A model generated the notes under the pieces. It ran no database searches. It was not told the DNA's origin and was given only the letters and a program-made list of their open reading frames with translations. This document shows positions 1,029 to 41,436 of a stretch of DNA of 64,000 nucleotides, one piece after another. The position numbers and the translations under genes were made by a program. The DNA is from an uncultured Spirochaetota bacterium (GTDB taxonomy: Bacteria; Spirochaetota; Spirochaetia; SZUA-6; Fen-1364): assembly GCA_963781885.1 (NCBI GenBank), contig CAWAHW010000001.1, forward strand, positions 480,001 to 544,000, written 5' to 3'. The stretch's first letter is position 1. Each line of letters begins with the position of its first letter.

Positions 1029-2518
1029 TCGCCGCCCGCTCCACTCTGACGCGAGGGCTCGGCGGTCGATCCCCGGTTTTCTTTTCCACGCACCAGGGAG
1101 AAACATGCCGCGACCAGGCAGAGCACGAGGGAAACGAGAAACGTGTTGCGGATCCCGGCGACGAATGCCTGCATCGTCGCGGAGCCAAGCGTGACGTTCG
1201 TGCCGACGAAGAGCTGCATCATTGCATCCCGTGGGAGGCTGCCAGCGGCAACCGCGAGGGCCAGGGCGAAGCTTGTCACCATGCCCGTCTGCCGCAGCGT
1301 CGCGAGCGTCGCCGATGCAATGCCCAGCCGTTGTCGCGGGGCTCCATTCATCGCGGCGCTCGTGTTGGGGGAAAAGAAAAGCCCGCCGCCCAGCCCGACC
1401 AGCACCAGCCCGAAAGCGATGGAGCCGTAGCTGGAGGTCGGCGTCAGCCGCAGCACGAACCACACGAGCGCCCCCGCCTGGAGCAGCAGACCCGCCGTGG
1501 CGGGGATCCGCGCGCCGATGCGGTCGGCCAGGAGCCCGCTCAACGGCCCGGTGACCGCGCTCATGACGGAAAGGGGAATGAGGAAGAGGGCAGCGGTGAG
1601 CGGGCTGTAGCCGCGCACTCCCTGGAAATAGAAGACGATGAGGAAGTTCACGGCGAACATCGCCAGGGACTGCAGCAACGCCGATACGACCGAAAAGCTG
1701 TAGACGCGGTTGCTGAACAGGCCGAGATCGAGCACGGGGTTCGCGACGCGCCGCTCCCGCCGGAGAAATATGGCGAGCATCAGGACGAAAAGAGCGAACA
1801 GGGAGAGGATGGGGAGCGAGGTCCAGCTCATCTGGATGCCGAGCGTGAGAGCAAAGAGGATCGCGATGAGTCCAAGGCTGAACATTCCCGCGCCGATGAG
1901 ATCGAAGCTTTCCGTCCTGCTGCGCGCGGACATCTCCTTCAGCGCCAGGAAACCCCACACGGTGCCGAGGATGCCGATGGGCACGTTGATGAAAAAGATC
2001 CATCGCCAGTTCGCGGCGGCCAGAATCAGGCCGCCGAGGAGGGGACCGGCGATGCCGCCCAGCGCCCAGGTGATGCCGTTGATTCCCAACGCCCTTCCCC
2101 GTTGATGGGGCGGGAACACCTCGGCGATGATGGCGGGGCTGTTCACCATCATGAAGGCGGCCCCGCCGCCCTGTACGATACGGAAGATGATGAGCTGCGT
2201 TGCGCTCTGCGAGATGCCGCACAGCGCGGAGCCCACCGTGAATATGATGAAGCCGAGATTGTACATCCGCACGCGTCCGAACATGTCCGCGATGCGTCCG
2301 AATGTCAGGAGACAGACCGTGCTCATGAGGATGTAGGCCATGATGACCCACACCATCTCGACCAGCCCCGCGTGCAGCTTCACCATCATGTCCGGCAGGG
2401 CGAGGGTCACGATGGTGCCGTCGATCGCCGCCATGAGGGCGCCGATGGTCGTCACGCTGAGGGCGATCCACTTGTAGTCGATCCGCCGATGCGAAGAAAG
2501 GGTAACCGGTGCGTGCAT
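1025..2518 (-). CDS. MFS transporter, DHA2 (EmrB/QacA-like)
   Basis: ~14 TM segments; AIDGTIVTLALP, GRIADMFGR, GPLLGG motifs. Confidence 0.95.
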   Translation of the reverse strand: MHAPVTLSSHRRIDYKWIALSVTTIGALMAAIDGTIVTLALPDMMVKLHAGLVEMVWVIMAYILMSTVCLLTFGRIADMFGRVRMYNLGFIIFTVGSALCGISQSATQLIIFRIVQGGGAAFMMVNSPAIIAEVFPPHQRGRALGINGITWALGGIAGPLLGGLILAAANWRWIFFINVPIGILGTVWGFLALKEMSARSRTESFDLIGAGMFSLGLIAILFALTLGIQMSWTSLPILSLFALFVLMLAIFLRRERRVANPVLDLGLFSNRVYSFSVVSALLQSLAMFAVNFLIVFYFQGVRGYSPLTAALFLIPLSVMSAVTGPLSGLLADRIGARIPATAGLLLQAGALVWFVLRLTPTSSYGSIAFGLVLVGLGGGLFFSPNTSAAMNGAPRQRLGIASATLATLRQTGMVTSFALALAVAAGSLPRDAMMQLFVGTNVTLGSATMQAFVAGIRNTFLVSLVLCLVAACFSLVRGKENRGSTAEPSRQSGAGGE

Positions 2519-2656
2519 GGAACCTTCCGTCAGACGTCGCGGGCCGCGCCCGCGCGAATCGTTCTATTGTAAAATCGTTTTACTACAAAACATTATGCCG
2601 CGTCAAGGACCGGTGATGTCTCGCTATCCGGGCCCGCCACCCCGGCGTGGGAGACA

Positions 2657-3412
2657 TCAGGCAGGGACGCGCGAGCGCAGCGTACCGTCCAGCAGCTCCA
2701 TGAGCTTTGCAAATCCGCGCTCCGCCTGCTGCGGGTGATATACCTTGCCGCCTGGCACCATCCATCCGTGGAGCGCGCCGTCGTACGTTTCACTCTCGAA
2801 CAAGCCGCCCCAGGCGCGAAGCGCGGCGTCCAGTTTCTCCACGGCCTCGGCCGGCATGCTGCGGTCTTGCGTAGCGTGCCCGAAGTAGAGGCGCGCTTTC
2901 ACCGCGGGCAGCACGAGATGCGGGCTCTGGTCGCCGTCGATGGCAAGGCGCCCGCCATGGAACGACGCTGCCGCGACGATCTTATCCGGCCGTGCAGCCG
3001 CGGTCCGCAGCGCGAACTGGCCGGCGAAGCAGAAGCCGACGACGCCCATCGGCCCGCGGCTGACGCGCGGCTGCGCGGCGAGGTAGTCGACGTACGCGGC
3101 GCCGTCCTGCGCCATCGCCTCCGGCGTGAGCGGGGTCGTGAGCTCCCGGAAACGGCTCATCGTCCGCTCGCTCGTGAAGTCCGCGTCGGAATCGAAGGCC
3201 GGCGGCCTGGTCGTGCGGTAGAAGATGTTGGGCGTGAGAACGACATAGCCGGCCTCCGCGATGCGTTTCGACAGCTCCACATGCGCCGGGCGGAATCCAA
3301 GCCCGTCGGTGAGCTGGATGATGCCGGGCAGCGCTTCCGCCGTGTCGGGCCCCACTATTAGCGCATCGATCGTCCCGGCAGCGGTGGGTATCTCAACCTG
3401 GTTCGTGAACAT
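2657..3412 (-). CDS. Dienelactone hydrolase family protein
   Basis: GFCFAG nucleophile motif, YDGALHGW. Confidence 0.92.
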   Translation of the reverse strand: MFTNQVEIPTAAGTIDALIVGPDTAEALPGIIQLTDGLGFRPAHVELSKRIAEAGYVVLTPNIFYRTTRPPAFDSDADFTSERTMSRFRELTTPLTPEAMAQDGAAYVDYLAAQPRVSRGPMGVVGFCFAGQFALRTAAARPDKIVAAASFHGGRLAIDGDQSPHLVLPAVKARLYFGHATQDRSMPAEAVEKLDAALRAWGGLFESETYDGALHGWMVPGGKVYHPQQAERGFAKLMELLDGTLRSRVPA

Positions 3413-3619
3413 GCGGCCTCCATCTCTGGAACCCGGGGCAAGGAGAATGCAAATTGCCCGCCTGGGGTCCTTGCCGAATAATAATATAGAAAAAGACCTG
3501 CGACCAGGGGAGGCTCACAATGGGCATTCGCGTGCGGGAGGAAGGGCGTGGCCGTGAAATATTTTTATTGCAATACTGGTGTTTTTGTATATAATGGAGA
3601 AACAACTTTGTCCATCTGT

Positions 3620-5205
3620 ATGGAGAGGCGGCGTTCTTTGAGGTGGCTGCTCCTTCTGGCCATTCTTGCAATCCTGGCGGTCCCTGTTTTTGCCGACGGC
3701 AATCCGTACGGCGGAACAATTGTATTTGCCTACTACGATGAGCCGACGAAGCTCAATCCGCTTTATGCCGCGAGAGGGATATGCGGCAGCAATTGCCAAC
3801 TTTTTTACGGATGGGCTTATCACATTCAATGCGGCCAAAGAGGTCGTTCCAGACCTTGCTGAAAGCTGGGATGTCTCTCCTGACGGCCTTACATGGACAT
3901 TTCATCTCAGGAAAGGTGTCAAGTTTTCAGACGGGACCGAGATGACTGCCGACGACGTGCAGTTTACTTATGAACAGGGAACCAGTCCCAAGTATGGCAA
4001 TCCGTATTCCGATTTCTTGCAGGTCGTGAGAGGATTCAAGGCAGAAGGAAAGTACACTTTCAAGGTTTTTTCAAAGAGCCCCTACGGAGCCCTTCCAACG
4101 ATAATGAGCAGACCGATTGTTCCCAAGCACTGTTTCCTGAACGAGGCCACTGAAAAAGAGTACGACAAACACCGTGTCGGAACTGGCCCGTTCAAACTGA
4201 CGGAATGGAGGTCTGGGCAATTAACCTTTGATGCAAATCTCGATTATTTTCTGGGTCGGCCCCATCTGGACAGGGTTGTTTTCAAGCTTTTCCCCGATAA
4301 TAAAGTTGCATGGGCTTCGCTGTTGCGCGGGGAAGCCGACTATGTGCCGGAGATTGATTACGAGGATTACGCGGTAATAAAAGACGACCCACGTTTCTCT
4401 GCCTATGGGTATCTCGACGATTTTTGTTGCTCACTTTTCTTCAATAACAAAGATCCTCTTTTGTCGAATCGAAAGATTCGACAGGCCATTTCGATGGCAA
4501 TCGACAGGAAGGACCTTATTGACAAAGTACTTCAGGGTGGGGGCCTTGCCGCAAACGGTCCCTTCAAGCCGGGTACCTGGCCCTACAACCCGGATCCTGC
4601 GCTCCAGGCCTACAACCCGGCATTAGCAATGAAGATATTCGCCGATCTCGGATGGAAAAATAAAAACAACGAATGGGTACTGGAGCAAAGCGGCCAGGAG
4701 CTGAAATTCAAGGTTGCCATTTTTTCCGGGAGCAGCTCCGAAGAAATGACAGCCAAGAGGCTGCAATGGCAGCTCCTCTTGCGGGGATAAAAATGGAGAT
4801 AGAGGAAATGTCTCTCCAGGACCTCTTTAAGAAGACATCGCAACCCGGCTCTTTCCAGGCAATGCTTATTCCGTTCAACACATACCCAGATCCCGATACT
4901 TGCGCACGAAGTTTCTGGTATTCCGGCACATGAAAATCCCAGGGAATCTTCGCCTCTTACAGCAACCCTGCCGTCAACAGGCTGATCGATTTGGGCGGAC
5001 TCCTCTGATTTCAACACACGAAAAGGAATTTACCAGAAAATCCACAGCATGATTGCCCAGGATGCTCCAGCCGCATTTCTGTATTTCAACAAGAGATACA
5101 CGGCGACATCCGCGCGATTGCACGTGCCTGGCTTTGCTGAACATTTCGCAGTTAGCTGGTTATGTGCAGGACTGGTATGTGACAGATTCCAAGGAAAGGA
5201 GGTGA
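3620..5205 (+). pseudogene. ABC peptide-binding protein (SBP family 5), broken by several frameshifts (errors or decay)
   Basis: Signal peptide MERRRSLRWLLL; PDLAESWDVSPDGLTWTFHLRKGVKFSDG; VGTGPFKL; frame changes near 3770, 4780, 4930-5010 and 5130; ends VQDWYVTDSKERR*. Confidence 0.85.
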
Positions 5206-5210
5206 GGCAA

Positions 5211-5306
5211 ATGATTATCGAAATCGTCGAAGAGGGCTACTAGGAACTGGATGAGATGGGACCCATGATGTGCTGCGGTCTTGTCGTCGGTTCCACGGGT
5301 CGTTAA
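5211..5306 (+). CDS. Putative RiPP precursor peptide (geopeptide-like) with in-frame TAG at codon 11
   Basis: MIIEIVEEGY*ELDEMGPMMCCGLVVGSTGR*; strong RBS AAGGAGGTGA; acidic leader plus CC core; directly upstream of rSAM/SPASM gene. Confidence 0.8.
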
Positions 5307-5317
5307 GACATGATGCA

Positions 5318-5343
5318 GGGGAAAGGGCGAAAGCCTTTTCCCC
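5318..5343 (+). promoter_or_regulatory. Stem-loop between precursor and maturase (mRNA stabiliser or attenuator)
   Basis: GGGGAAAGGGC-GAAA-GCCTTTTCCCC: 11-bp stem with one G-U pair, GNRA loop, no U-tract. Confidence 0.7.
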
Positions 5344-5354
5344 GGAAAGATCAC

Positions 5355-6689
5355 ATGATCCCTTCACGATTCAATGTCACCGTCCCTGATTTTCCCGGGA
5401 GCGGCAAGTATCTGCTCTACAACACGGTCACGCAGGCCCAGGTCGTCATTGATGACGCGCTGAGGGCAATACTCGGGGAGCTCCCGACCTTGCCGGAGAA
5501 GGAAGAGGCCCGGACCGCGGTCGCCCAACTCCAGCGAATGGGCTTTCTTGCCGCCTCGGAAAGCGACGATACCGCGGCGCTGGAGAACCTCTTCAAGAAG
5601 GTATGGGATGACCATTCGGTCATTCGCGCCACGGTCCTGATGACATACTCCTGCAACTTCCGCTGCGTGTACTGCGTTGAAGAAGGAGTCAAGGAGCCGG
5701 TCTTCATGGATGAGAAGACGGCCTTGGAAGCGGTCGAATACATAGAAGGCAAGCTCAAGGAGTATGGCGCAAGGAAGATCGACGTTTACTTCTACGGCGG
5801 CGAGCCCCTCCTGAACGTGCCCGCCATCCGCACCATGGCTCGGGGCTTGAGCGATTTCTGCCGCGCCAACAATGTGCCCTTCACTTTCGGTTTCAACACC
5901 AATGGCGCCCTTCTGACTTCCGAGCTCATCGCGGAGCTCATGCCGCTGGGCCTGAGCTGGGCGAGGATCACAATCGACGGCCCGAAGGAAAGCCACGACA
6001 GGTATCGGCCCTTCAAGAACGGTAAAGGGAGCTTCGACACCGTCACGGCAAGGCTCACCGAGGCATGCACCCTCATGCCCGTGGACGTCAACATCAACTA
6101 CGACCAGTCGAATGTCGGAAAGGTGCCGGCCTTGCTTTCTTACCTGCAGGATGTCGGCCTTGCCGCAAAAATCGGCAAGGTAACCTTCACGCCCATCACC
6201 CCGACCCCGAAGGACCGGGAAGGGCTCCGGCCCGCAACGGAGATGGACCGCGCCATGATGACGGTGGAAACCGCCGGGCAGTTGATCGAGCTTTCACGCG
6301 CGGCGCTGGACAAGGGCTACAAGGTCGACGTGGGGGTGCAGGCCCGCGCCTGCGAGATGGTCCTTCGGCGCACGAGCTTCATCATCGACCCCCGGGGAGA
6401 CCTCTATGGGTGCAGCGCGTTGGCGGGGCGCAAGGAATTCCGGCTTGGGAATTTCCGCGGCGAGCAGAAGGACCCCTTCAAGGGCCTGGAGCTCTGGAGG
6501 CGGTGCGCGGGCTGCGTCTATGCGCCTCTCTGCGGCGACGGCTGTCCCTTTGGCGCGTACATCCGCTACGGCGATCCTCTTGCGCTGAATTGCATGAAGG
6601 AGACGATGGATTACTTTGTGAGGGAGAGTCTGAAGCTGAGCTACCTGAACAAGAAGAAGGCGAAAGCAGAAGCCGCCCGCGTCCCCTGA
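5355..6689 (+). CDS. Radical SAM/SPASM peptide maturase (geopeptide-maturase-like)
   Basis: CNFRCVYC, FYGGEPLLN; SPASM C...GDLYGC...CAGC-X5-C-X3-C...C; ~85-aa N-terminal extension resembling an RRE. Confidence 0.92.
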   Translation: MIPSRFNVTVPDFPGSGKYLLYNTVTQAQVVIDDALRAILGELPTLPEKEEARTAVAQLQRMGFLAASESDDTAALENLFKKVWDDHSVIRATVLMTYSCNFRCVYCVEEGVKEPVFMDEKTALEAVEYIEGKLKEYGARKIDVYFYGGEPLLNVPAIRTMARGLSDFCRANNVPFTFGFNTNGALLTSELIAELMPLGLSWARITIDGPKESHDRYRPFKNGKGSFDTVTARLTEACTLMPVDVNINYDQSNVGKVPALLSYLQDVGLAAKIGKVTFTPITPTPKDREGLRPATEMDRAMMTVETAGQLIELSRAALDKGYKVDVGVQARACEMVLRRTSFIIDPRGDLYGCSALAGRKEFRLGNFRGEQKDPFKGLELWRRCAGCVYAPLCGDGCPFGAYIRYGDPLALNCMKETMDYFVRESLKLSYLNKKKAKAEAARVP

Positions 6690-7031
6690 ACTGTTTTCGC
6701 CGCAGCAAAACTCTGCAAAGGGTGCGGCAACGGATTCGCCGTCATCCCGATCAAGCTTCGCCTGGGAATATTCGGGGAGCAATCGGATTTCGGGATCGGG
6801 CTGGCGTCCGGCATCGAGTACTACGCCCTTCCGCTGTTCTTCGATTCCAATGACAACATCGTGCTTTCCGGCGACCCTTCGCTTGCAGGCTTTTTCCTCA
6901 CCCTGAAGGCGCTCGTGGAGCTCGACTACTGGGGCGGCAGGCTCACGCCCTGGGTGATGGGCGGCGCAACGCTGATCGGCACGATTGGCGGTGACGGGGG
7001 CGGCGACACCTACTATTACTACTACTACTGA
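6690..7031 (+). pseudogene. Start-less ORF remnant, beta-strand-rich, ending in six tyrosines
   Basis: Open frame ...FAVIPIKLRLGIFG...LKALVELDYWGGRLTPW...GGDGGGDTYYYYYY* with host-like codon usage; no RBS or start. Confidence 0.5.
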
Positions 7032-7064
7032 GACCGTGGCTTTGAACGACCCGCGTCGAATCGA

Positions 7065-7868: not shown

Positions 7869-8576
7869 ATGAGCGCGGAAGAAGCGGTGGCGAACAACCG
7901 GGTCATCATCATAGAAGACGATATCGAGCTCGGCGATCTTGTGCGCATCTATGTCGCGCGCGAGGGGGTGGAGGCGTCGCTCTGCGGCAGCGCGGAGTCG
8001 GGGCTCGCCCTTTTCCGCAGCATCGGGGCTGACCTGATCGTGCTGGATATCAACCTGCCGGGCATGGACGGCTTCGCGTTTCTTCGGACGCTGCGCAGGG
8101 AGAGTGCCGTTCCCGTCATCATCATCTCCGCCCGGGAATCCGACGAGGACATCGTCATGGGTCTCGGGATCGGCGCCGACGAGTTCGTGACCAAGCCGTT
8201 CGTCCCGCGCGTGCTCGTGGCGCGCATCAGCGCGATGCTCCGGCGAAACGGCGCCATGAAGCCGAAGACGATCGGCTTCGATTCCTACGTCCTTGACTAT
8301 GAGGGGTACACCCTCACGCGGGACGGTCGACGGGTCGTTCTCTCCACCCGGGAGTTCGAGCTCCTGCGCCATTTGCTTTCCCACCCCGGCGTCGCCATGA
8401 CACCGGAGGAGATTTATCGCGACGTGTGGGGATCGCACTATGGAGACCTCACCGCGGTTGCCGTCTACGTGCGGCGTCTGCGGTTGAAGATCGAGGAGGA
8501 GCCCGCCAATCCGCGCTACCTCCAGACCATCCACGGCCGCGGGTATCGTTTCAATCCGGACGTCGTGAAGGGGTAG
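7869..8576 (+). CDS. OmpR family response regulator
   Basis: IIEDD, LDINLPGMDG, KPF, TIHGRGYRF. Confidence 0.95.
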   Translation: MSAEEAVANNRVIIIEDDIELGDLVRIYVAREGVEASLCGSAESGLALFRSIGADLIVLDINLPGMDGFAFLRTLRRESAVPVIIISARESDEDIVMGLGIGADEFVTKPFVPRVLVARISAMLRRNGAMKPKTIGFDSYVLDYEGYTLTRDGRRVVLSTREFELLRHLLSHPGVAMTPEEIYRDVWGSHYGDLTAVAVYVRRLRLKIEEEPANPRYLQTIHGRGYRFNPDVVKG

Positions 8577-8580
8577 GGCG

Positions 8581-9921
8581 ATGCGGCTGGAAACGAAGTT
8601 CGTCTTCCTGATCGTGGGCACGATCGTCGTTCCCCTGGTCACGATATTCCTCATGGTGCTGGTGGCCTTTGCATTCCTTCCCGACCGGACGGGGTTCACG
8701 GCCGCCGTGCGCACCGCGTTTGTCGCCGATTCCCTCCGTCACCGATCCATCTCCCCCGGCGACATCGTGCCGTTCGTGCGCGAGGCATCTCCCGCCCTGG
8801 AGGTGATGGTCTTCGACGATCGCGGCACGCTCATCTCCTCCACCCTCCCCACCGACTCGCTCACGGAGCTTTTGTCCGGCGGCGCCAGCTCGCGGTTCCT
8901 TGCTTTCAACAAGTTCCCCATGCGCGCGCCCGACGGCACGCGCTATGCAATGGCCATCGGCATCCCCATGAAGGATGCGTCGCAGGCGCCGTGGCAACGC
9001 TATATCCCGATGATCGCCCTCCTGTCGCTGCTGGCGTTCATGACGCTGATGTCGGTGGTCATCATCCGGTCCATCAACGTGTCCATCGCGCACCTGGAGG
9101 AGGGCACGCGGCGCATCAGTGAAGGAAACCTCGACTTCGAGCTCACCGCGCGGGGAAATGACCGCATCGCCTCTCTCACGCGCTCGTTTGACGACATGCG
9201 CCGGCGCGTCCAGGAGGAGACCGCCACCCGCTCGCGCTTCATCATGGCGGTGTCCCATGACCTGAAGACCCCGCTCGCGAGCATCACGGGCTACGTCGAC
9301 GCAATAGGCGACGGGATTGCTTCCGACCCGGGGCAGCTGGAGAGATACCTTGCCATCATCCGCGACAAGGCGGGCCTCCTGGGCAGCAGGATCGGCCAGC
9401 TCATCGACTACGTGAAGCTCGATACGGCGGACTGGAGGCGCTCGCGGGAGAGCGTCCTGCTGCTCCCCTTCCTCAACGAGGCGGTGACCGTGTTCCGCAC
9501 CGAGGCGGAGGTGCGGGGATTCGGATTCGACTCCTCGATCGACATCGGCCCGGACACCTTCATATTCATGGATGCCGACCTGGTCTACCGGGCGCTGGAA
9601 AACCTCGTGCAGAACGCCTTTCGCTACGGGGAGGCCTCCTCCACGATTGCGTTCCGCGCCGGTGCAGCCGATGGCCGCATCACCCTCGCCGTCACGAATC
9701 GGGGCACGCCAATCCCCCCCGAGGACCTTCCCTTTATCTTCGAGCCATTCTTCCGCGGCACCCGGGCGCGCCGGGAGGGCGGCTTCGGCCTGGGGCTGTC
9801 TGTCGTGAAGTCCGTCGTGGCGAGCCACGGCTGGAGCATCACGGCGGTGTCTCGTGACGGCAGCACGTCTTTTGCCATCGAGATTCCGCCCGCCGGTGCG
9901 CAGGCATATAACAAGTTGTAA
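8581..9921 (+). CDS. HAMP sensor histidine kinase
   Basis: 2 TM, HAMP, SHDLKTPL, NLVQNAFRY, GFGLGL. Confidence 0.95.
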   Translation: MRLETKFVFLIVGTIVVPLVTIFLMVLVAFAFLPDRTGFTAAVRTAFVADSLRHRSISPGDIVPFVREASPALEVMVFDDRGTLISSTLPTDSLTELLSGGASSRFLAFNKFPMRAPDGTRYAMAIGIPMKDASQAPWQRYIPMIALLSLLAFMTLMSVVIIRSINVSIAHLEEGTRRISEGNLDFELTARGNDRIASLTRSFDDMRRRVQEETATRSRFIMAVSHDLKTPLASITGYVDAIGDGIASDPGQLERYLAIIRDKAGLLGSRIGQLIDYVKLDTADWRRSRESVLLLPFLNEAVTVFRTEAEVRGFGFDSSIDIGPDTFIFMDADLVYRALENLVQNAFRYGEASSTIAFRAGAADGRITLAVTNRGTPIPPEDLPFIFEPFFRGTRARREGGFGLGLSVVKSVVASHGWSITAVSRDGSTSFAIEIPPAGAQAYNKL

Positions 9922-9993
9922 GAATTTTTCATTCCGTGAAAATTGTCTTTCTCTCCCCCTTTCGTATCTTGGTACGGGAGAACGGGAGAACAC

Positions 9994-10749
9994 ATGACAA
10001 TCATCGAGCTGAAGGACGCGCGCAAGGTGTACCTGCTGGGCAAGGTGCAGGTGGAGGCGGTCAAGAGCGTGAGCTTCGCGATCGAGAAGGGGGATTTCGT
10101 CTCGATTGCCGGGCCGTCGGGATCGGGCAAGTCGACGATCCTGAACCTCATCGGCCTCATCGACACACCGACCGCCGGAAGCGTGGAGATCGAGGGGAAG
10201 CCCACGGCGGGCTACTCGGACACGGAGCTCACCCGGCTGCGGCATGACGCGATAGGGTTCATTTTTCAGAGCTTCAATCTCATACCCGTTCTGGACGTGT
10301 ACGAGAACATCGAGTTTCCCCTCCTCCTGGGCAGCGTGAAGGGCCCGAAAAAGGAGAGGCGCGAATGGGTGGAGTCGCTCATCGCCGAGGTGGGGCTCGA
10401 GCAGTGGCGCCGGCACAAGCCGAACGAGCTCTCCGGCGGACAGCGGCAGCGTGTTGCCATTGCCCGCGCCCTGGTGACCCGTCCGGCCATCGTGCTTGCC
10501 GACGAGCCCACCGCGAACCTCGATTCGAAAATCGGCGAGCAGATCATCTCCCTCATGAAGAAGATCAACCGCGACCTCTCCACGACGTTCATATTCTCCA
10601 CGCACGATGCGAATATCGTCGGCATCGCCGACCACGTCATCCGCCTGCATGACGGAGAGGTGGTGGAGAACACGCGCAACGTCGTGGCGGCAACGGGTCG
10701 CGGAGACGGGGCGGGCATTGGCTCCCTCTCTCCCATCGGGCAGGTCTAG
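9994..10749 (+). CDS. ABC ATP-binding protein (LolD/MacB-type)
   Basis: GPSGSGKST, LSGGQRQR, LADEPTANLD. Confidence 0.95.
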   Translation: MTIIELKDARKVYLLGKVQVEAVKSVSFAIEKGDFVSIAGPSGSGKSTILNLIGLIDTPTAGSVEIEGKPTAGYSDTELTRLRHDAIGFIFQSFNLIPVLDVYENIEFPLLLGSVKGPKKERREWVESLIAEVGLEQWRRHKPNELSGGQRQRVAIARALVTRPAIVLADEPTANLDSKIGEQIISLMKKINRDLSTTFIFSTHDANIVGIADHVIRLHDGEVVENTRNVVAATGRGDGAGIGSLSPIGQV

Positions 10750-10752
10750 CGC

Positions 10753-12207
10753 ATGGGCGTCCTGATCAGGATCGCGCTGCGCAACCTGCGCGAGCACACC
10801 TCAAAGAGTCTCATCATCGGCACGCTCATCGTGCTGGGCGTCATCATCATCGTCGTGGGCAACAGCGTGCTGGACACCGCCGAGCAGGGCGTCCACCGCA
10901 TGTTCATCGACAACTACACCGGCGACGTGTTCATCTCAGGCATCCCCGTGACGCGCGGGGCGTCGGTGAGCCTGTTCGGGCTCCAGGCGGCAGGGGACTC
11001 GGAGAGCACGCCGGTGCTGCCGGAAATTGACGCGCTGCGGGCTCACCTTGCGGCGGACACGCGCGTGCAGGGTATCACGAGCCAGGTCACCGGCATGGGC
11101 CTCGTGGGCGTGGACGGCAACGACAACCACGCCATCGCGATCCTTTTCGGCGTGGACCCCGCGACTTATCCGCAGCTCTTCAAGGATACCCATCTCGTGG
11201 AGGGAAGCTACCTGAAGCCCGGCCAGGAAGGCCTGGTGGTGTCCCGCGGATGGCTTGCGAGCGCGGACAAATCGCTGAAGACGACCCTCACGGTCGGGGA
11301 CAAGGTGATTGTGAACGGGTTCGGCCGCGCGGGGTTCAAGATCCGCGAGGCGACCATCGTCGGCGTCGTGGATTTCAGCGCGGAGTCCGAGGGCATGAGC
11401 ATGATCGCGTGGGCCAACGCCGACATGGTGCGTATCCTGAGCGGCGTCGACGTCACCGCGGATGACGTGACCCTCACCAAGGACCAGACGGCGCTCCTGA
11501 ACGCGGGAAATGAGAACGACATATTCGGCTCCGCGGAGACGACGCTCACCGCCGCGCAGGCACGCGCGCCCGTCATTGCCACCGCCGCTGCGAAAGCCCC
11601 GGCAACCGCCGCGACGGGGGAAGGCTCCTGGCACTTCATCCTCGTACGGCTGAAGGATTCCGGTCAGGCCACGCGCTTCATCAACGATACCAATGCGTGG
11701 CTTTCAAGCCAGGGCATCGCGGCAAAGGCAGCGGGATGGAAAGCCGCCGCCGGCCCCCTGGCCCAGAGCATCGACGTGATCCGCATCGTGTTTTCCATCG
11801 CCATCCTCATCGTCGCCATCGTCGCCATCATCATCATCATGAACACGCTCGTGATATCGGTCATCGAGCGCACGGGGGAAATCGGCACGATGCGGGCGCT
11901 GGGCGCGCAGAAACCCTTTGTCTGGCTCATGTTCCTCGTGGAGACGCTCACCGTGACGATTGCGTTCGGCATCGTCGGCATCGTCCTGGCCTCGGGCATC
12001 ATCGGGGTGGTGAACCTCGCGCACGTCTCCACCACGGACTTCTTCACGCAGCTCGTATTCGGCGGCAAGGTGCTCCGGTTGGGAATACGCCCCATCTCTT
12101 TCCTGAGCACGCTCCTCATGGTGGCGGCCGTCGGGCTCGTGTCCCACCTCTATCCGGTCATCGTCGCGCTGAAGGTCCCGCCGGTGCGGGCGATGCAGGG
12201 CGAGTAG
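10753..12207 (+). CDS. ABC permease, FtsX/LolE-like
   Basis: ERTGEIGTMRALG; N-terminal TM, periplasmic domain, 3 C-terminal TM. Confidence 0.9.
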   Translation: MGVLIRIALRNLREHTSKSLIIGTLIVLGVIIIVVGNSVLDTAEQGVHRMFIDNYTGDVFISGIPVTRGASVSLFGLQAAGDSESTPVLPEIDALRAHLAADTRVQGITSQVTGMGLVGVDGNDNHAIAILFGVDPATYPQLFKDTHLVEGSYLKPGQEGLVVSRGWLASADKSLKTTLTVGDKVIVNGFGRAGFKIREATIVGVVDFSAESEGMSMIAWANADMVRILSGVDVTADDVTLTKDQTALLNAGNENDIFGSAETTLTAAQARAPVIATAAAKAPATAATGEGSWHFILVRLKDSGQATRFINDTNAWLSSQGIAAKAAGWKAAAGPLAQSIDVIRIVFSIAILIVAIVAIIIIMNTLVISVIERTGEIGTMRALGAQKPFVWLMFLVETLTVTIAFGIVGIVLASGIIGVVNLAHVSTTDFFTQLVFGGKVLRLGIRPISFLSTLLMVAAVGLVSHLYPVIVALKVPPVRAMQGE

Positions 12208-12216
12208 GGAGAACGC

Positions 12217-13542
12217 ATGGCGCTTTCAACAATCGCATTCAAGAACTTAAACCGGCAGAAGAAGAGGACGTTCCTCCTGGGCGGGGCAATCGCATTCGGC
12301 GTGCTGATCGTGACGCTCATCGACGGCTTCTCCGGGGCGTTCAAGCAGAACGTGAGCGAGAACTTCGCCGACATCGCCGCCGGTCACATCTTCGTGGAGG
12401 GAAGCGAGAAGAGCGAGTCAGGACGGGTCGTGACGGTGATCCGCGACGACTCGGTCCTCACGAACGTGCTGCAGCAGACCGGCATCCCCGCGCAGTACCT
12501 GTCGAAGCGCTCCATCGCGCAGGGCACGCTGATATTCGAGAGCAAGAAGACACAGCTCAACATCCAGGGCGTGGATTTCGCCAACGAGCGCTATCTCACG
12601 GAGCGCCTCGTGCTCTCCCACGGCTCCTTTGCCGCGATGAGCAACAGGCACGGCCTCATCCTGAGCGAGCAGACGGCGACGAAGCTCAATGCGCAGATCG
12701 GGGACAGCCTCCTGTTCCAGCTCACCACCGTGACGGGGCAGCAGAATGTCGGCGACATGGTGCTCGTGGCCACGACGCCGGACACCGGGCTCCTGTCGGG
12801 CTTCTCCGCGTACGCGAATCTCTCCTATCTCAACGAGCTTCTGAATCTCGGCGACGGCGAGTACCAGACGCTGGGCATCTACCTGCCGTCGCTCGCGGGC
12901 ATGGACAGCTACGCCACGACGTATTACGAGGCGCTGCGCAAGCAGGCCAACGTGAAGGAGCGCGCGAAAACGGCGGACACGCAGGGGACGGGCTTCGGGC
13001 CGATGGCGGCCTTCATGGGCGGCGGCACGACGGAGGACAGCTGGACGGGGGTCCGTTACCGGGTCTTCACCCTCGATGACCTTCTCTCCTCCGTCCAGCA
13101 AATCGTGAACGTGCTCAATTCCGTCTCCATCGGCATCCTCATTGTGCTCTTCGTCATCATCATGGTGGGCATCCTCAATACGTTCCGCATGACCATGTAC
13201 GAAAGGATCCGGGAGATCGGGACGATGCGGGCGCTGGGCATGCTCCGATCCGGTGTGAGGAACCTCTTCCTGCTGGAGGCGCTTTTCCTCGCCCTGGCAG
13301 GTGTCGTGGTGGGCTTCGCGGCGGCCGGCGTGGTCATGGGCGTGCTGTCCCTCTTCAACCTGGGGACCAGCTCGCCGCTTTTCATCCTGCTGCGGGCGGG
13401 GCACTTGAGCTTCCACGTGCCCCTTGCGCAGGCGGTCGTGAACATCCTCATCATCGCCGCGCTCACACTCGTGGCCGCCTATTTCCCCGCACGGGCCGCG
13501 GCGCGGCTTTCGCCGGCGCTTGCCCTGCGGACAACCAAGTAA
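12217..13542 (+). CDS. ABC permease, FtsX/LolE-like
   Basis: ERIREIGTMRALG; same architecture as the previous gene. Confidence 0.9.
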   Translation: MALSTIAFKNLNRQKKRTFLLGGAIAFGVLIVTLIDGFSGAFKQNVSENFADIAAGHIFVEGSEKSESGRVVTVIRDDSVLTNVLQQTGIPAQYLSKRSIAQGTLIFESKKTQLNIQGVDFANERYLTERLVLSHGSFAAMSNRHGLILSEQTATKLNAQIGDSLLFQLTTVTGQQNVGDMVLVATTPDTGLLSGFSAYANLSYLNELLNLGDGEYQTLGIYLPSLAGMDSYATTYYEALRKQANVKERAKTADTQGTGFGPMAAFMGGGTTEDSWTGVRYRVFTLDDLLSSVQQIVNVLNSVSIGILIVLFVIIMVGILNTFRMTMYERIREIGTMRALGMLRSGVRNLFLLEALFLALAGVVVGFAAAGVVMGVLSLFNLGTSSPLFILLRAGHLSFHVPLAQAVVNILIIAALTLVAAYFPARAAARLSPALALRTTK

Positions 13543-31920: not shown

Positions 31921-32739
31921 GTGGCGATCAAAGGTGAATGGATCCGTTACGGCCGGGGCTCGGGGTACTTCGCGAGGCCCGAGAAGGCGGTGACGCCGCT
32001 GCCGGGGGTGCTCGTCATCCAGGAGATCGGCGGCGTGGGCCGGAACATCGAGGAGCTGACGCGCCGCTTTGCCGCGGCCGGCTACGCTGCCCTGGCGCCC
32101 GACCTTTTCGCGGTGGACGGCGTCCGCCTGCCCGCACTCGCGGATGAACGGATCCGCGCGGCTTTCGCGTTCGGCGCCACGCAGCCGCCGGGGGCCATGT
32201 TCGATCCCGCGCTTCGGGAGGCGGCGCTGGCGAAGCTTCCCGAGACGGAGCGGCGAGCCATCGCCGAGACATACGGCCAGATGTTCTCCTATGCCCGCGG
32301 GGGGAGCGCGGAGACCCTGATGGAGCCGCTTTCGCTGGGATTCCGTCACCTGCATGACGAGCGGGCGGAGACCCGGGGCCAGAAGATCGGCTGCGTGGGC
32401 TTCTGCATGGGTGGCGGGTTGTCGGCGCTCCTGGCCTGCGAGGAGCCTGCCCTTTCCGGCGCCGCGGTCTTCTACGGCACGACACCGCCTGCCCCGAAGA
32501 TCGCCCATATCACCTGCCCCATCATCGCCTTCTACGGCGCGAAGGATCAGCGCGTGAATGCGGGCATCCCCGGCTTCCTGGAGGGCATGCGTGCCGCGGG
32601 CAAGTCATTTGAGCACCACGTCTATGAGGGGGCAGGGCACGCCTTCTTCAACGACGACGGGCCGGGCTACGAGGTGAATGCGGCCCGGGACTCATTCGCG
32701 CGTCTGCTCACGTTCTTTTCCCAGACGCTCGCCACATAG
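31921..32739 (+). CDS. Dienelactone hydrolase family protein
   Basis: GFCMGG, YEGAGHAFFND. Confidence 0.92.
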   Translation: MAIKGEWIRYGRGSGYFARPEKAVTPLPGVLVIQEIGGVGRNIEELTRRFAAAGYAALAPDLFAVDGVRLPALADERIRAAFAFGATQPPGAMFDPALREAALAKLPETERRAIAETYGQMFSYARGGSAETLMEPLSLGFRHLHDERAETRGQKIGCVGFCMGGGLSALLACEEPALSGAAVFYGTTPPAPKIAHITCPIIAFYGAKDQRVNAGIPGFLEGMRAAGKSFEHHVYEGAGHAFFNDDGPGYEVNAARDSFARLLTFFSQTLAT

Positions 32740-32747
32740 GAGGGGAC

Positions 32748-33902
32748 GTGTCTCGGGAATGCCTCGTGATGGCAAAACCCGCGGGGCCGCGCTGCAACAT
32801 GCGCTGCGCGTACTGCTACTACGTGGAGAAGGAGTCTGTCCTGCCGAAAGGTCCGGGCCGACTTCCCACGGATCTCCTGGAGCGCTACATCGAGCAGCGG
32901 CTCCGCGCGTCGCCCGGCCCCGTCGTTCATTTCGAATGGCACGGCGGGGAGCCGACGCTCCTGGGCCTGGACTACTTCCGCACGATCGTGCGCCTCCAGC
33001 GCACACACCTTCCGCCCGGGCGCACGGTCACCAACGGTCTGCAGACCAACGGGTACGCGGTGGACGGCGCATGGGCGGGCTTCCTGGCAGGGGAGGGTTT
33101 TTCCGTCGGCCTGAGCCTCGACGGCCCGGCGGATGTCCACGACGCGTATCGCAGAACGGCCGATGGACGGGGCACGCACGCGCGGGTCGAGCGCGCCCAT
33201 GCGCACCTGAAGGCGCGGGGCGTCTTTGTCAACCTTCTCTGCGTGATCCAGGCGCGGAATGCCTGCCAACCGGACGCGGTTTACGACTACTTCCACGGCC
33301 TGGGGGCAACGCACCTGCAATTCCTCCCCCTGGTTGGTGGCAGCCCCGGAGGTGCCTGCGCGGCGGCCCCGGAAACGGTCGGGCAATTCCTCTGCCGGGT
33401 TTTTGACCGGTGGGTGGCAGCGGACGTCGGCCGGGTGGTGATCCAGAACATCGACGAGGCGCTCCGCCCCCTTTACGGCCTGCCCCACGCTCTCTGCGTG
33501 CACCGCGAGACTTGCGGCGAAGTGGCGGTGCTGGAACGCGACGGCGGCTTCTACGCCTGCGACCATTTTGTCGACCCGGACCACCTCATTGGGAGCCTGC
33601 GTGAGAAAGCGCTGGCCGAGCTTGTCGACGACCCGCGGATGACGGCATTCGGTGATGCGAAGCGCGACGCCTTGCCGCGTGCCTGCCGTGGGTGCGACGT
33701 GCTTTCATCCTGCAACGGCGGCTGCCCGAAGGATCGCGGGGCCGCTTCCCCCGGGGAGCCCGGCGGCGTGAGCCGGCTTTGCGCCGCTTACCGGATGTTT
33801 TTCCGACACAGCAAAGCCGAGCTTACACGGCTGGCCTCTCACATGCATGACGGGCGCCCGCTCCGGGAGTTCAACCCGATCTCGACGCCTGCGGTAGTGT
33901 AA
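32748..33902 (+). CDS. Anaerobic sulfatase maturase-like radical SAM/SPASM enzyme
   Basis: MAKPAGPRCNMRCAYCYY, WHGGEPTL, YACDHFV, CNGGCPK. Confidence 0.92.
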   Translation: MSRECLVMAKPAGPRCNMRCAYCYYVEKESVLPKGPGRLPTDLLERYIEQRLRASPGPVVHFEWHGGEPTLLGLDYFRTIVRLQRTHLPPGRTVTNGLQTNGYAVDGAWAGFLAGEGFSVGLSLDGPADVHDAYRRTADGRGTHARVERAHAHLKARGVFVNLLCVIQARNACQPDAVYDYFHGLGATHLQFLPLVGGSPGGACAAAPETVGQFLCRVFDRWVAADVGRVVIQNIDEALRPLYGLPHALCVHRETCGEVAVLERDGGFYACDHFVDPDHLIGSLREKALAELVDDPRMTAFGDAKRDALPRACRGCDVLSSCNGGCPKDRGAASPGEPGGVSRLCAAYRMFFRHSKAELTRLASHMHDGRPLREFNPISTPAVV

Positions 33903-34588: not shown

Positions 34589-34841
34589 GGAGCCGCCGGG
34601 CGTCCAGGGGCCGGCGAGATCCCAGTCCCGCTGGACGCCCACCAATGATGGAAAAGTCAGTTTCTGATTACTCGTCACATATCCGCGCTCGTTTCGTCTC
34701 TGCGGCCGAGGGCCGCCGCCCCCGCATGAAAGCTGTCACGGATTGCATATAGGCGCCAGGGGGACCCGGTTGTAGTTTTGCGAGGTTTTGCGATATGCTT
34801 TCATTGATCATATTAATGAACGAAGTGGAAAAGGGAGACCC

Positions 34842-37800
34842 ATGAAAGCTGGCGCCGGCAACCGCCGTTTCTATCGTTTTGCTCTTCTTTGCTCCTTCCT
34901 CTTTCCACTGGTGCTTCTGCTGTCCGCCTGCCCGCCCCCGGTGACGGACCTGCTCGCAACGGCCGTGACCGACAAGTTGCCGCCGACAATTACGGTCACC
35001 TCCCCCGGGGCGGGCCAGACCTACACCGCCAGCGTCACCTTCACGGGAACGGTGACGGACGACGCCATCACGGCGGGCGATGGAAAAGGCACCCTGAAAA
35101 CGATCGACTACACGGTGGCCAACGACGTGCTGCGCAAAGGCAAGATCAAAATCAACACCGACGGCACGGCGACGCAGGACACCACCTTTGGCTCCGGCAC
35201 CATCACCTGGACCGCGGCCACGCATACATTCACGTTCACCATTTCCACCATCAGCCCGACGCAGCTTCGCGGCGTCGTCACCGTCAACGTCGACGCAACG
35301 GACGTCAACGGCAATCCCTCCACTTCCACGGTGCAGTTAACGGAGGGATCGGGCCCGGTCATCACGCTAACCAGCCCTGACGCTGTCAATAATCCGAACA
35401 GTCTGAAGTACACTAATCTTTCTCTTTTCACCCTGAGCGGCAAAGTGGCAAATGCATCCGACGACCCGATGCACGACGACAATATTGCATCCCTTTCCTG
35501 GGGGGTAACGGGCAAGAACTGGGGAACCTCGATCACGGTGGTGAGCGGTACAAAGAGCTATGCCGTGACAAGCACGGGTTCCCTGAGCCCCGAGCCGACC
35601 TTCAATTTTAACACGGACACCCAGGTGTTCTCCACGACGTTCACCATCCCTGTAATCAGCGACAATACGCTCATCCTGACCGTGACGGCAACTGACAAGA
35701 ACGGACATACGACCACAAGCACGAACTATCTTGTCGCGGATGTATCAGGACCCGAATTGCATTTTTCAAGTGCAACGACAGGAGTTTTTTACAGTCCCAG
35801 CCATTATATTCCCCAGCTGGTCCAGGGAAGTGCCATAGTCGTTGACCCTGTGGCATTCAAGCAATTGACATATCAGCTCGCGGCTAACGACGGTTATTTG
35901 TCCGACATTATCGATGTCACGACTTCCGTCCAGCCGGACGGATCGTTCAGCTTCCCGTTGCTTGCCACGGGCACCAAGTCTGCCACGCTTGCCAACCACA
36001 ATGGTACGGCGTCGGTAACAATTACAGCCGTCGACAGCAACAACCACCCCACGGTCTTCTCTTATCCGATCGCGATGGACAATACGCCGCCGTCGATCAC
36101 CGGGGTGTCCATCACCACGAACAACAGCTTTGACAGCACGCACACGCACACGAAGGTCGGCGACACGATCACCTTGTCCTTCCAGGCCTCCGATGCCCTT
36201 TCGGGCATGAGCGCAGACCCCGTGGTGAGCATAGCGGGCAACTCCATCACGCGGGCAGGACCGGTGGGCAGCACCTACAGCGGGCCCGTGGGCTCGACCT
36301 ACACCGTCACGTACACCCTGCAGTCGACGGATTCTGGTGATGATGCCTTCATCCCCTATGGCATCACGGCGACAGACAATGTGGGAAACACCAACAACAC
36401 GTATGCCAGCCAGACCAGCGTCATCAAGTTCTACGAAAGCCTTCCCACGGTACCGACGGTGACCATCGCCTCCACGACCAATCCTCACCCGACATGGGCA
36501 AAGCAGGGCGACACGGTGCGGCTGAGCTTTACGACGCTTCGGGACTTGAACGCGGCAGCCACGGTCACCATGGCGGGGCCGAGCATAGGGACGCAAAACC
36601 CGGTGACTCCTGTCCTTCCTGCAAGCCTGACGGCGCACAGCTACACGGCCGACTACGTGATGGCCGCGGGGGACGCGGAAGGCACTGTGCCCTTCACGAT
36701 CAGCATCGTGGATGCGGCGGGCAACACCATCGCGGCGCCGATGACGACGATCACCTCGGGGTCCAACGTGACCTATGACCGGAGCAAGCCCATCGGCTAC
36801 TCGGCGCACATCGACCAGCAGTACGTCACCACTGCAAACCTGACCACGGTCACCTTCACCTTTGCCGGGGCCGAGGTGAAGACACCCGCCACCACGTACA
36901 ATTACACAATCACGAGCTCGGGAGGGGGAACGCCGGTGAGCGGCAGCGGCAGCATCACCTCCCCCACGCAGAATGTGGCCGTCCCCACGCTCTCAGGGCT
37001 GACTGATGGCACGCTGACCCTCTCGGTGTGGCTCACGGACTACGCTGGCAACGGCACCGTTGCAGATGAGGTCTCTTCTACCGTCACAGCCGGATCCCAG
37101 ACGGTGTACCTGGACCGCGCGGCTCCTTCGATCAGCGCGGTGAGCATCACCACGAGCAACACCTTTGATAGCACGCACAAGCATACGAAGGTTGGGGACG
37201 CGATCACGCTGACCTTCAACGCCTCAGACGCGGTCTCGGGTCTCAACGGAGACCCTGTGGTGAGCATAGCGGGCCACTCGATCACACGGGGAGGGCCCAT
37301 CGGCACCTATAGCGGGGGCCCGGCCTACACGGTCACGTACGCCCTGCAGTCTGCGGATTCCGCCTATGATGAGGCCTTCATTCCCTACAGTGTCACGGCG
37401 GCGGACAACGCGGGGAACGCCAACAACACGTATGCCAGCCAGACCAGCGTCATCAAGTTCTACGAGAGCCTTCCCACGGTACCGACGGTGACCATCGCCT
37501 CCACGACCAATCCTCACCTGACATGGGCAAAGCAAGGCGACACGGTGCGGCTGAGCTTTACGACGCTTCGGGACTTGAACGCGGCAGCCACGGTCACAAT
37601 GGCGGGGCCGCCGCAAAACTCGGTGACTCCCTCTCCTGCAAGCCTGACGGCGCACAGCTACACGGCCGACTACATGATGGCCGTGGGGGACGCGGAAGGC
37701 ACTGTGCCCTTCACGATCAGCATCGTGGATGCGGCGGGCAACACCATCGCGGCGCCGGTGACGACGATCACCTCGGGGTCCAACGTTATCTATGACCGGA

Positions 37801-40770: not shown

Positions 40771-40794
40771 AAAAGGCAGCGATAGCAAGTCCGG

Positions 40795-41436
40795 CTAAAG
40801 CTCCCACCAGTCGTCCCAGAGATATCCTTGCTGGACGATGTAGCGGGTGTCCCACGCCTCGACCTTGCCGTTGGAAAAGATGACGGGGAACCAGCCCCAC
40901 TTCCAGTTGCTCCAGAGATCGATGCTCGTCTTGCCGTAGGTGTCCATGACCTTTACCACGCCCGTCGACCGGTCATGCGCGGTGATGCGCATGTGCTGAA
41001 TGTCGAGGCTTACCTGGGCATGCTTTTGAAAAACGTATGCTGAGTAATGTTCGATGGTTCCCCAGGGAAACTCGTATTGATTGATCTGCTTGCGCAGCAC
41101 GCAGTTCGCATCCTCATTCGGCCCATAGCTCGTCGTGGAGCGGGAAACAGGCGTCTCCTGGGAGACGGCGGAAAGCTGCACGAACTTTGAATAGCCCGAT
41201 CCGAACGCGCCCTGCAGCAGGGAGGTGAGGCCGGCAACAAGCGCGCTTTGGTCGCCGCCCGATGCGGTGCCGTCCGTCGATTGCGCGACAAGCGCCTCTG
41301 CCTGCGGACGGAGGCTGTCGAGGACCGCTTGTTCCTCCGCGGTCACCGCGACGCCGTTCCAATTCGCCTGCATCTGACATGCAGAAACCACCACGAGAGC
41401 AGCCAGCACGGCGATGAGCCGGAGCTTCATGTTCAT
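40795..41436 (-). CDS. Hypothetical lipoprotein with Trp-rich C-terminal domain
   Basis: Lipobox VVSAC; RBS GGAGG. Confidence 0.75.
   Translation of the reverse strand: MNMKLRLIAVLAALVVVSACQMQANWNGVAVTAEEQAVLDSLRPQAEALVAQSTDGTASGGDQSALVAGLTSLLQGAFGSGYSKFVQLSAVSQETPVSRSTTSYGPNEDANCVLRKQINQYEFPWGTIEHYSAYVFQKHAQVSLDIQHMRITAHDRSTGVVKVMDTYGKTSIDLWSNWKWGWFPVIFSNGKVEAWDTRYIVQQGYLWDDWWEL

Follow-up and report, generated by a model that had tools for sequence, protein, structure and literature searches.

Among catalogued peptide-modifying systems, those closest to the locus reported here are, by profile score, the geopeptide system, with its radical S-adenosylmethionine (SAM) maturase family TIGR04280 and its precursor family TIGR04229, and, by solved structure, CteB, the thioether maturase of the SCIFF peptides. 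Literature searches returned nothing on "geopeptide" or "TIGR04280", nor on radical SAM/SPASM systems for peptides made on ribosomes and modified after translation (RiPPs) in spirochaetes. The available passages of PMC10288494 contain no Geobacter, Spirochaet or TIGR04, and its supplements, which cover ~15,000 enzymes, may include the clade. In this current study, we analysed 64,000 nucleotides of an uncultured Spirochaetota bacterium (assembly GCA_963781885.1, contig CAWAHW010000001.1, positions 480,001 to 544,000 of the forward strand), hereafter called the window. In it, a 31-codon frame encoding a peptide with two adjacent cysteines, and interrupted by a TAG codon, lies between a broken gene for a family-5 solute-binding protein and an intact radical SAM/SPASM maturase gene. 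The best explanation, to which we assign a probability of about 0.8, is that this locus is a defective copy of an uncharacterised RiPP cassette belonging to a sister branch of the geopeptide system, and that the TAG is an ordinary lesion. The elements of the cassette in the window are the following.

3620 to 5205, + strand: gene for a family-5 (Opp/Nik/Cnt-like) periplasmic solute-binding protein, broken in the assembly (PF00496, 273.9 bits; open frame of 382 aa)
5196 to 5205, + strand: ribosome-binding site of the precursor gene, read directly, overlapping the stop codon of the binding-protein frame
5211 to 5306, + strand: precursor peptide gene of 31 codons, with a TAG breaking the frame at 5241-5243; the peptide has a leader of ~11 residues, a Gly at position 9 and Cys-Cys as its core (residues 21-22)
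5318 to 5343, + strand: stem-loop between precursor and maturase, without a T tract, identified from folding energy and shuffles
5355 to 6689, + strand: intact gene for a radical SAM/SPASM peptide maturase with an N-terminal domain (residues 1-85) resembling a RiPP recognition element (RRE), identified from TIGR04280 (263.6 bits), PF04055 (53.4 bits), invariant cysteines and an AlphaFold2 model

The ribosome-binding site, the 31-codon frame with its TAG, the 11-bp GAAA hairpin and the intact radical SAM/SPASM gene at 5355-6689 were all found just where an earlier, sequence-only reading of this DNA had placed them. The ribosome-binding site, AAGGAGGTGA, ends 6 nt upstream of the ATG at 5211, and the binding-protein frame that lies upstream terminates at a TGA within AAGGAGGTGA. 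The 31 codons of the precursor frame occupy 5211-5303, with TAG as codon 11 and a TAA at 5304-5306; the product truncated at the TAG would be a ten-residue leader only. The maturase frame, open from 5310, shares with its relatives a start codon at 5355 (ATG) and closes with a stop codon at 6687-6689.

TIGR04280, the geopeptide radical SAM maturase family, was the best NCBIfam family for the window's maturase and aligned with it end to end (residues 2-425 of 444 against profile positions 2-420 of 428), at 263.6 bits against a curated cut-off of 400. It was also the best family for five related maturases (267-331 bits). The named geopeptide maturases P0102 and P0108, which are ~31% identical to the window's maturase, scored 538 and 562 bits on the same profile, and metagenome loci of 29-30% identity (L027, L028 and L043) likewise fell under the cut-off. 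The next families, CefB, TIGR04463, nif11-type, FlmE/OhkG, PapB (119.5 bits), Clo7bot, QhpD, CcpM and the SCIFF maturase, all scored below their own cut-offs. Among 120 of the 161 homologues (E ≤ 1e-20), those that bear names are called "uncharacterized protein", "radical SAM protein" or "SPASM domain-containing protein", or are the two geopeptide maturases. Because the TIGR04280 and TIGR04229 scores lie under the curated cut-offs, the clade is placed as a sister branch and not as a member of the geopeptide family. The geopeptide resemblance proposed from the sequence alone thus holds as far as nearest catalogued relatives are concerned, and membership in TIGR04280 and TIGR04229 does not. Judged by these profile scores, the locus is an unnamed and uncharacterised sister branch of the geopeptide system that is conserved in spirochaetes.

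The maturase was present in seven of 40 relatives' genomes (E ≤ 1e-30), comprising three of 20 from the same genus and four of 16 from other families of the order. At all seven of these loci an intact small open reading frame (ORF) encoding Cys-Cys was found between the end of the binding-protein gene and the maturase, and the same upstream ORF was found in nine of the 21 metagenome loci read (L015-L018, L022-L025 and L037). In L021, L026 and L035, a related ORF with a single Cys lies just 3′ of the maturase. No precursor was recognised in L020 or in the loci of ≤30% maturase identity, and L019 has just 46 nt of flank. A purine-rich ribosome-binding site precedes the small ORF in relatives as well. 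Among the 13 relatives' peptides aligned, Gly9, Cys21 and Cys22 are invariant and Glu4 is nearly so. When the window's peptide was compared with that of L001, the closest relative (maturase 80% identical), 12.5 synonymous and 9.5 non-synonymous differences were counted, giving a dN/dS of 0.106, which matches the 0.10-0.14 of the maturase. The small ORF is therefore a real gene under purifying selection, and the precursor-maturase pair that had been proposed from the window alone is borne out by these homologous upstream ORFs.

It might be supposed instead that the small frame is a chance ORF, and that the enzyme acts on some other substrate, for example a protein or the precursor of a cofactor. 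The window's peptide matched no family model, and the enzyme is intact even though the sole candidate substrate gene is broken, as this alternative would have it. However, position, ribosome-binding site, length, Gly9 and Cys-Cys are all kept across maturases of 31-80% identity, synonymous changes outnumber non-synonymous ones, and a predicted complex of the enzyme and the L001 peptide outscored the best control, at 0.83 to 0.02 (see below). Because it is conserved and under purifying selection, the small frame is more than chance; conservation already contradicts a chance origin, which we regard as highly improbable. A second precursor copy was absent from the assembly when it was searched with a degenerate motif and by tblastn with the 13 relatives' peptides; the best other match, near 661.5 kb on contig C2, is without ORF structure. 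As a separate matter, the peptide of the L021/L026/L035 clade carries one Cys between aromatic residues and not Cys-Cys, and there the binding-protein gene lies further downstream.

The enzyme encoded beside this peptide gene has the features expected of a radical SAM peptide maturase. The PF04055 match scored 53.4 bits (gathering score 29.5) and a CX3CX2C motif is present, which places the protein in the radical SAM superfamily; Cys100, Cys104 and Cys107 of this motif are invariant in all 33 family members aligned. Seven C-terminal cysteines (333, 353, 384, 387, 393, 397 and 413), also invariant in 33 of 33, make up the motif for two auxiliary clusters that identifies the SPASM domain. Radical_SAM and Fer4_12 were the only Pfam matches in the maturase, and TIGR04085 was not among the 25 matches listed for it. 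The AlphaFold2 model had a mean pLDDT of 90.5, and its N-terminus shows strands at residues 7-11, 18-23 and 29-33 followed by helices at 34-41, 50-61 and 69-85, which is the layout of an RRE, a winged-helix fold to which the leader adds a strand. CteB (5WGG/5WHY) was the closest solved structure (profile E = 3.7e-34 over residues 9-408; fold TM 0.68-0.72), and the full-length fold also matched the SPASM enzymes anSME and SuiB. The alignment and the model together show an architecture of RRE-like domain, radical SAM core and seven-Cys SPASM domain.

Peptide binding was assessed by predicting the complex of the window's maturase with the L001 peptide, which scored 0.83, whereas the best control scored 0.02. 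The mark used for this score was reached by 58 of 80 solved complexes and by two of 110 mismatched pairs, counts that hold roughly, since custom alignments were used and ligands rode along. The runs shared at least 65% of contacts, with a partner pLDDT of at least 53. In the model, peptide residues 1-11 lie on enzyme residues 18-36 and 51-63, with peptide residues 2-7 on enzyme residues 29-33, and peptide residues 19-22, which include Cys-Cys, lie near enzyme residues 329-334, 355, 397 and 399. The RRE-like N-terminal extension suspected from the sequence is thus supported by the two predicted models, of which one gives it three strands and three helices and the other places the leader on the strand at 29-33. 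The pass may reflect a likeness to solved leader-RRE complexes of related enzymes and is not proof of binding.

We next turn to the TAG, for which the sequence-only reading had entertained decoding as pyrrolysine or programmed readthrough, so that a full-length precursor would be made under translational control. The peptide-like sequence does continue in frame past the TAG, though a recent nonsense change would be just as likely to leave it so. L001 has CAG as codon 11, and L015 encodes Gln there; the window differs by a C-to-T change, and none of the other precursors read has an in-frame stop at codon 11 or anywhere else. PylS had no match in the source genome, which is 92.55% complete, and PylD, the other Pyl protein searched for, reached 19.2 bits (cut-off 150). 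No tRNA with the anticodon CUA was present among the 46 tRNAs of that genome. Moreover, TAG ends 1023 of the 3649 stop-to-stop frames of at least 350 codons (28%), and the next in-frame stop follows after 46 codons for TAG, 44 for TGA and 39 for TAA, which gives no readthrough signal by this measure, a crude one that includes spurious long frames. Because the codon is not conserved, no PylS or CUA tRNA was found and TAG acts as an ordinary stop, recoding is excluded for practical purposes and is the least probable of the explanations weighed here; the TAG is an ordinary lesion and not a recoding signal. In the same genome, ARAGORN also reported a tRNA-like gene without an assigned identity on contig C3 (12551-12638), with a two-base anticodon loop reading "(aa)".

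The cassette extends beyond the precursor and its enzyme, and the order binding protein, precursor, stem-loop and maturase is conserved. In L001 and L015 the binding-protein gene is whole, with products of 546 and 526 aa. A family-5 binding-protein gene on the same strand adjoins the pair in 18 of 22 loci of at least 31% maturase identity, the other four having an upstream flank of at most 573 nt, and in none of 15 loci of ≤30% identity. Its nearest families are Opp4A, NikA, Opp5A/NikA, GsiB, DppA and the staphylopine-binding CntA, all scoring far under their cut-offs. The hairpin at 5318-5343 has 11 pairs (one G-U) around its GAAA loop and a predicted folding energy of -23.8 kcal/mol (z = -4.5); none of 200 shuffles folded equally well. 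A stem of at least 8 pairs was predicted in 13 of 15 precursor-maturase spacers (the exceptions being L008 and L009), so that the hairpin remarked on in the sequence-only reading recurs in relatives; among these stems only that of the window was compared with shuffles. Outside the group of the window, L001 and L015, the stem sequences are unrelated. No T tract follows the hairpin 5318-5343 and the terminator scan made no call, so it does not qualify as an intrinsic terminator; it is likely a transcript-end, stability or attenuation element.

Directly 3′ of the maturase, a sensor kinase gene was found in all six of the more distant spirochaete genome loci, for which wider flanks were used. Four of the six kinases have the order dCache-HAMP-PAS-HisKA-HATPase (two with a receiver in addition), and two have HAMP-PAS-HisKA-HATPase-receiver after an N-terminus without domain assignment. 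In L037, a dCache ORF and then a HAMP kinase ORF follow the maturase, and in the clade with MEI leaders (L023-L025) an ORF of 584-587 aa with ABC-ATPase similarity takes this place instead. The fixed partnership with a binding protein, usually joined by a Cache kinase, points to a peptide that is sensed or re-imported and not to a bacteriocin. The binding-protein and precursor genes have ~50% GC in a genome of 63% GC (window 3620-5306), as do their equivalents in L001 and L015, which suggests that the module moves horizontally. Contig C2 of the source genome also carries a homologue of the cassette-type kinases (~315600-317340, - strand), away from any maturase or binding-protein match; its identity to the L097 kinase is 33% across the sensor region, and to the L095 kinase 61% across 111 residues.

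Three further features flank the cassette of the window.

3568 to 3595, + strand: promoter-like site ahead of the binding-protein gene (sigma-70 consensus, 10 of 12 positions)
6690 to 7034, + strand: remnant, C-terminal half only, of a gene for a 197-aa secreted protein that is whole in L001 (tblastn, residues 96-178, 86% identity)
7869 to 9921, + strand: OmpR-type response regulator (7869-8576) and HAMP histidine kinase (8581-9921), identified by Pfam domains, a pair shared with L001

The cassette in the source genome is defective, with a broken precursor gene and a broken binding-protein gene. Three-way alignment with L001 and L015 revealed window-specific lesions in the binding-protein gene of +1 near 3768, -1 near 4777, -2 near 4996 and +1 near 5129, together with a +3 change carrying an in-frame TGA near 4931-4940; these four frameshifts and one stop lie mostly outside homopolymers. 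When the indels were removed, the dN/dS of this gene was 0.08-0.12. The 197-aa secreted protein gene retains residues 96-178 onward and lacks a start codon and signal peptide; the remnant lies 37 nt past the maturase stop. This gene was absent from the other 13 loci tested and is not part of the conserved cassette. In the sequence-only reading, a base-call error was held to be the likeliest cause of the TAG, on the strength of local indel density. Indels are indeed present in the assembly, but they are confined to the upstream gene and are not genome-wide. The frames of rpoB (1165 aa) and rpoC (1437 aa) are open, none of the genome's nine PF00496 matches has a shorter frame than the window's binding protein (382 aa, followed by 498 and 523 aa), and the maturase runs for 1332 nt without a lesion. 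Because rpoB, rpoC, the other binding-protein paralogues and the maturase are intact, the assembly is not generally indel-ridden. Such an error may still be the cause of the TAG, with its standing weakened by the cluster of lesions, the truncated neighbour gene and the otherwise intact genome.

In its strongest form, this alternative holds that the locus is fully functional, and that the TAG and the binding-protein frameshifts are local consensus errors of the metagenome assembly, arising for instance where strains differ. The intact maturase, the indel-free dN/dS of the binding-protein gene, which is like that of a working gene, the lack of excess amino-acid change in the window lineage and a 98%-identical contig from another run without the extra base near 5133 all speak for it. 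However, frames are open throughout ~7.8 kb of rpoB and rpoC and in the other paralogues of the binding protein; the lesions include a 2-nt deletion and changes outside homopolymers; a C-to-T substitution creating CTAG is atypical of indel-type error; and no error of base calling can account for the loss of the downstream gene's 5′ half. A methylation-type base-call error at CCWGG (CCAGG in the relative, CTAGG in the window) was considered and rejected, with CCAGG/CCTGG at 0.97 of expectation and CTAGG at 1.18 (243 sites), that is, neither a depletion of the former nor an excess of the latter. Pseudogene AT drift was also rejected, the GC of the binding-protein gene being 0.50 in the window, 0.51 in L001 and 0.54 in L015. 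Real recent mutation or strain polymorphism is, in our judgement, somewhat likelier than a local assembly artefact, to which we nevertheless allow a substantial minority share of the probability.

Several observations weigh against reading the locus as a defective, geopeptide-related cassette. A 98%-identical contig from another sample is without the extra base near 5133, which fits strain polymorphism or assembly error, and the other-sample contigs do not reach 5241. In the relative-rate count, the binding-protein gene had 42 window-specific and 34 L001-specific amino-acid changes, no clear excess (the maturase had 22 and 23); since there is no excess, any decay must be recent. Under uniform neutral decay, one would not expect 1332 nt of maturase to stay intact next to a gene that has five lesions. 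The indel-free dN/dS, the relative-rate count and the 98% contig are ambiguous, fitting very recent decay or polymorphism and a local consensus error alike. As to family, TIGR04229 gave no match to the window's peptide (E ≤ 10, the TAG being read as X), and among 12 relatives' peptides it gave two weak matches (15.1 and 19.3 bits) and ten without a match, the cut-off being 30 bits. As to the enzyme, Pfam returned no PqqD/RRE match in the maturase. Position 299 (window 6249-6251) is Cys in 30 of 33 members and Arg in the window, in P0002 (the L001-type protein) and in P0005; Cys299, just before the SPASM motif, is a possible eighth cluster ligand, without which a coordination site might be freed or the enzyme be weakened. 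As to the wider cassette, the subclade of the window, L001 and L015 is without an adjacent Cache kinase, and we infer the chemistry of the product, the role of the binding protein in capturing the peptide and any link to the kinase.

On the reading that the locus is a damaged copy of a working cassette type, the following sequence of events is proposed. The stem-loop would favour the precursor transcript over that of the enzyme. Approximately the first 11 residues of the peptide, the leader, would then join the sheet of the RRE-like domain as an extra strand next to enzyme residues 29-33, as in the predicted complex, and Cys-Cys would thereby be placed in the SPASM/active-site cleft. The enzyme could abstract hydrogen radically and form one or two Cys thioether links of the sactionine or ranthionine type; by likeness to CteB and to the nearest families of Cys-peptide maturases, we give such thioether chemistry an even chance. 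Other factors would export the peptide and remove its leader, after which the mature peptide would be captured by the binding protein and, in most relatives, read by the Cache-type kinase. In the source genome, the TAG at codon 11 would halt translation after the leader. That binding protein, Cys-Cys peptide, maturase and Cache kinase together form a self-signalling circuit of spirochaetes and other phyla is a tentative idea, which we consider rather unlikely. If it were true, a cross-linked peptide would be released, caught in the periplasm by an orphan family-5 binding protein and read by a Cache kinase, which would make it a new class of peptide signal or a metal-binding peptide that is sensed; the window's strain would then be a natural non-producer, in which the enzyme persists although the gene for the signal and the binding protein of the receptor are both lost.

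These results bear on how such loci are read. An amber codon in a peptide gene turns out to be ordinary, with no case for pyrrolysine or readthrough, and the window's copy is a warning that a cassette of this kind can combine a dead precursor gene with an enzyme of sound appearance. The family is a conserved and experimentally untouched radical SAM peptide system, one step from the geopeptide family, whose invariant Cys-Cys core offers a simple target for finding the chemistry; the intact pair in L015 (precursor 2330-2425, maturase 2501-3814) and the intact precursor in L001 (1804-1896) are ready material for co-expression. The conserved binding-protein gene and the sensor kinase, which the sequence-only reading had overlooked, are the more interesting part.

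With regard to the other features of the window, the promoter-like site at 3568-3595 is a candidate operon promoter on weak evidence from its sequence, as the two sigma-70-like sites in the region are not above shuffles (mean 1.4). Downstream of the maturase, L001 and the window share the gene for the 197-aa secreted protein, one of DUF3108-like type on the opposite strand, the OmpR regulator and the HAMP kinase, which is of another type than the Cache kinases found 3′ of the maturase elsewhere; L015 has a GPH-type transporter downstream of the maturase. No TonB-dependent receptor was found among the ten flanking ORFs covered by a scan that was not exhaustive. After the regulator-kinase pair, an ABC ATPase gene and two FtsX-type permease genes occupy 9943-13542 (+ strand). 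The ATPase best matched the model of the darobactin exporter DarD (224 bits against a cut-off of 375) and also matched LolD and MacB types; these genes could export a peptide, yet they are not conserved beside other cassettes. A second radical SAM/SPASM gene at 32628-33902 (+ strand), unrelated to the peptide locus, scores 379 bits on TIGR03942 (cut-off 349) and so encodes an anaerobic sulfatase maturase. Finally, an ORF of 2031 aa at 34788-40883 (+ strand) is without a credible Pfam domain (two marginal matches), and its region has an unusual strand composition, with a GC skew of about -0.1 and an AT skew of up to +0.2.

Compared with known systems, the logic of the cassette recalls LuxP-LuxQ, the methanobactin protein MbnE and the opine-metallophore protein CntA, in that the biosynthetic genes come with one for a periplasmic binding protein and, in most relatives, with another for a periplasm-sensing kinase. 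It differs from them in that the window's binding protein scores far under the family cut-offs and has no adjacent permease genes, and we take the comparison to be an analogy of logic only. CefB (NF038107) and TIGR04463, the second- and third-best families for the maturase, aligned over nearly the full length and are both annotated as maturases of Cys-containing peptides, but their scores of 177 and 164 bits lie under the respective cut-offs, 600 and 525; to our knowledge, both are likewise uncharacterised. CteB resembles the window's maturase most closely among solved structures by both profile and fold, over the full length with the N-terminal RRE-like part included, and shares with it the radical SAM core, the SPASM domain and a Cys-containing peptide substrate, whereas sequence identity is 18-19% and the maturase scored 89.4 bits on the SCIFF maturase family TIGR03974 (cut-off 425). 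The substrate in the window has two adjacent cysteines, whereas SCIFF has six, and we know of no SCIFF locus with a binding protein and a kinase. From the geopeptide system, the locus differs in the score of its maturase (263.6 bits against 538-562 for the named members, at ~31% identity) and in the peptides of its clade, which fall under the 30-bit cut-off or go unmatched. Nevertheless, it is this system that the locus most resembles, with TIGR04280 as the best-scoring family for its maturase over an end-to-end alignment, a short precursor with a similar N-terminal leader and Cys-Cys, and two relatives' peptides that weakly match TIGR04229.

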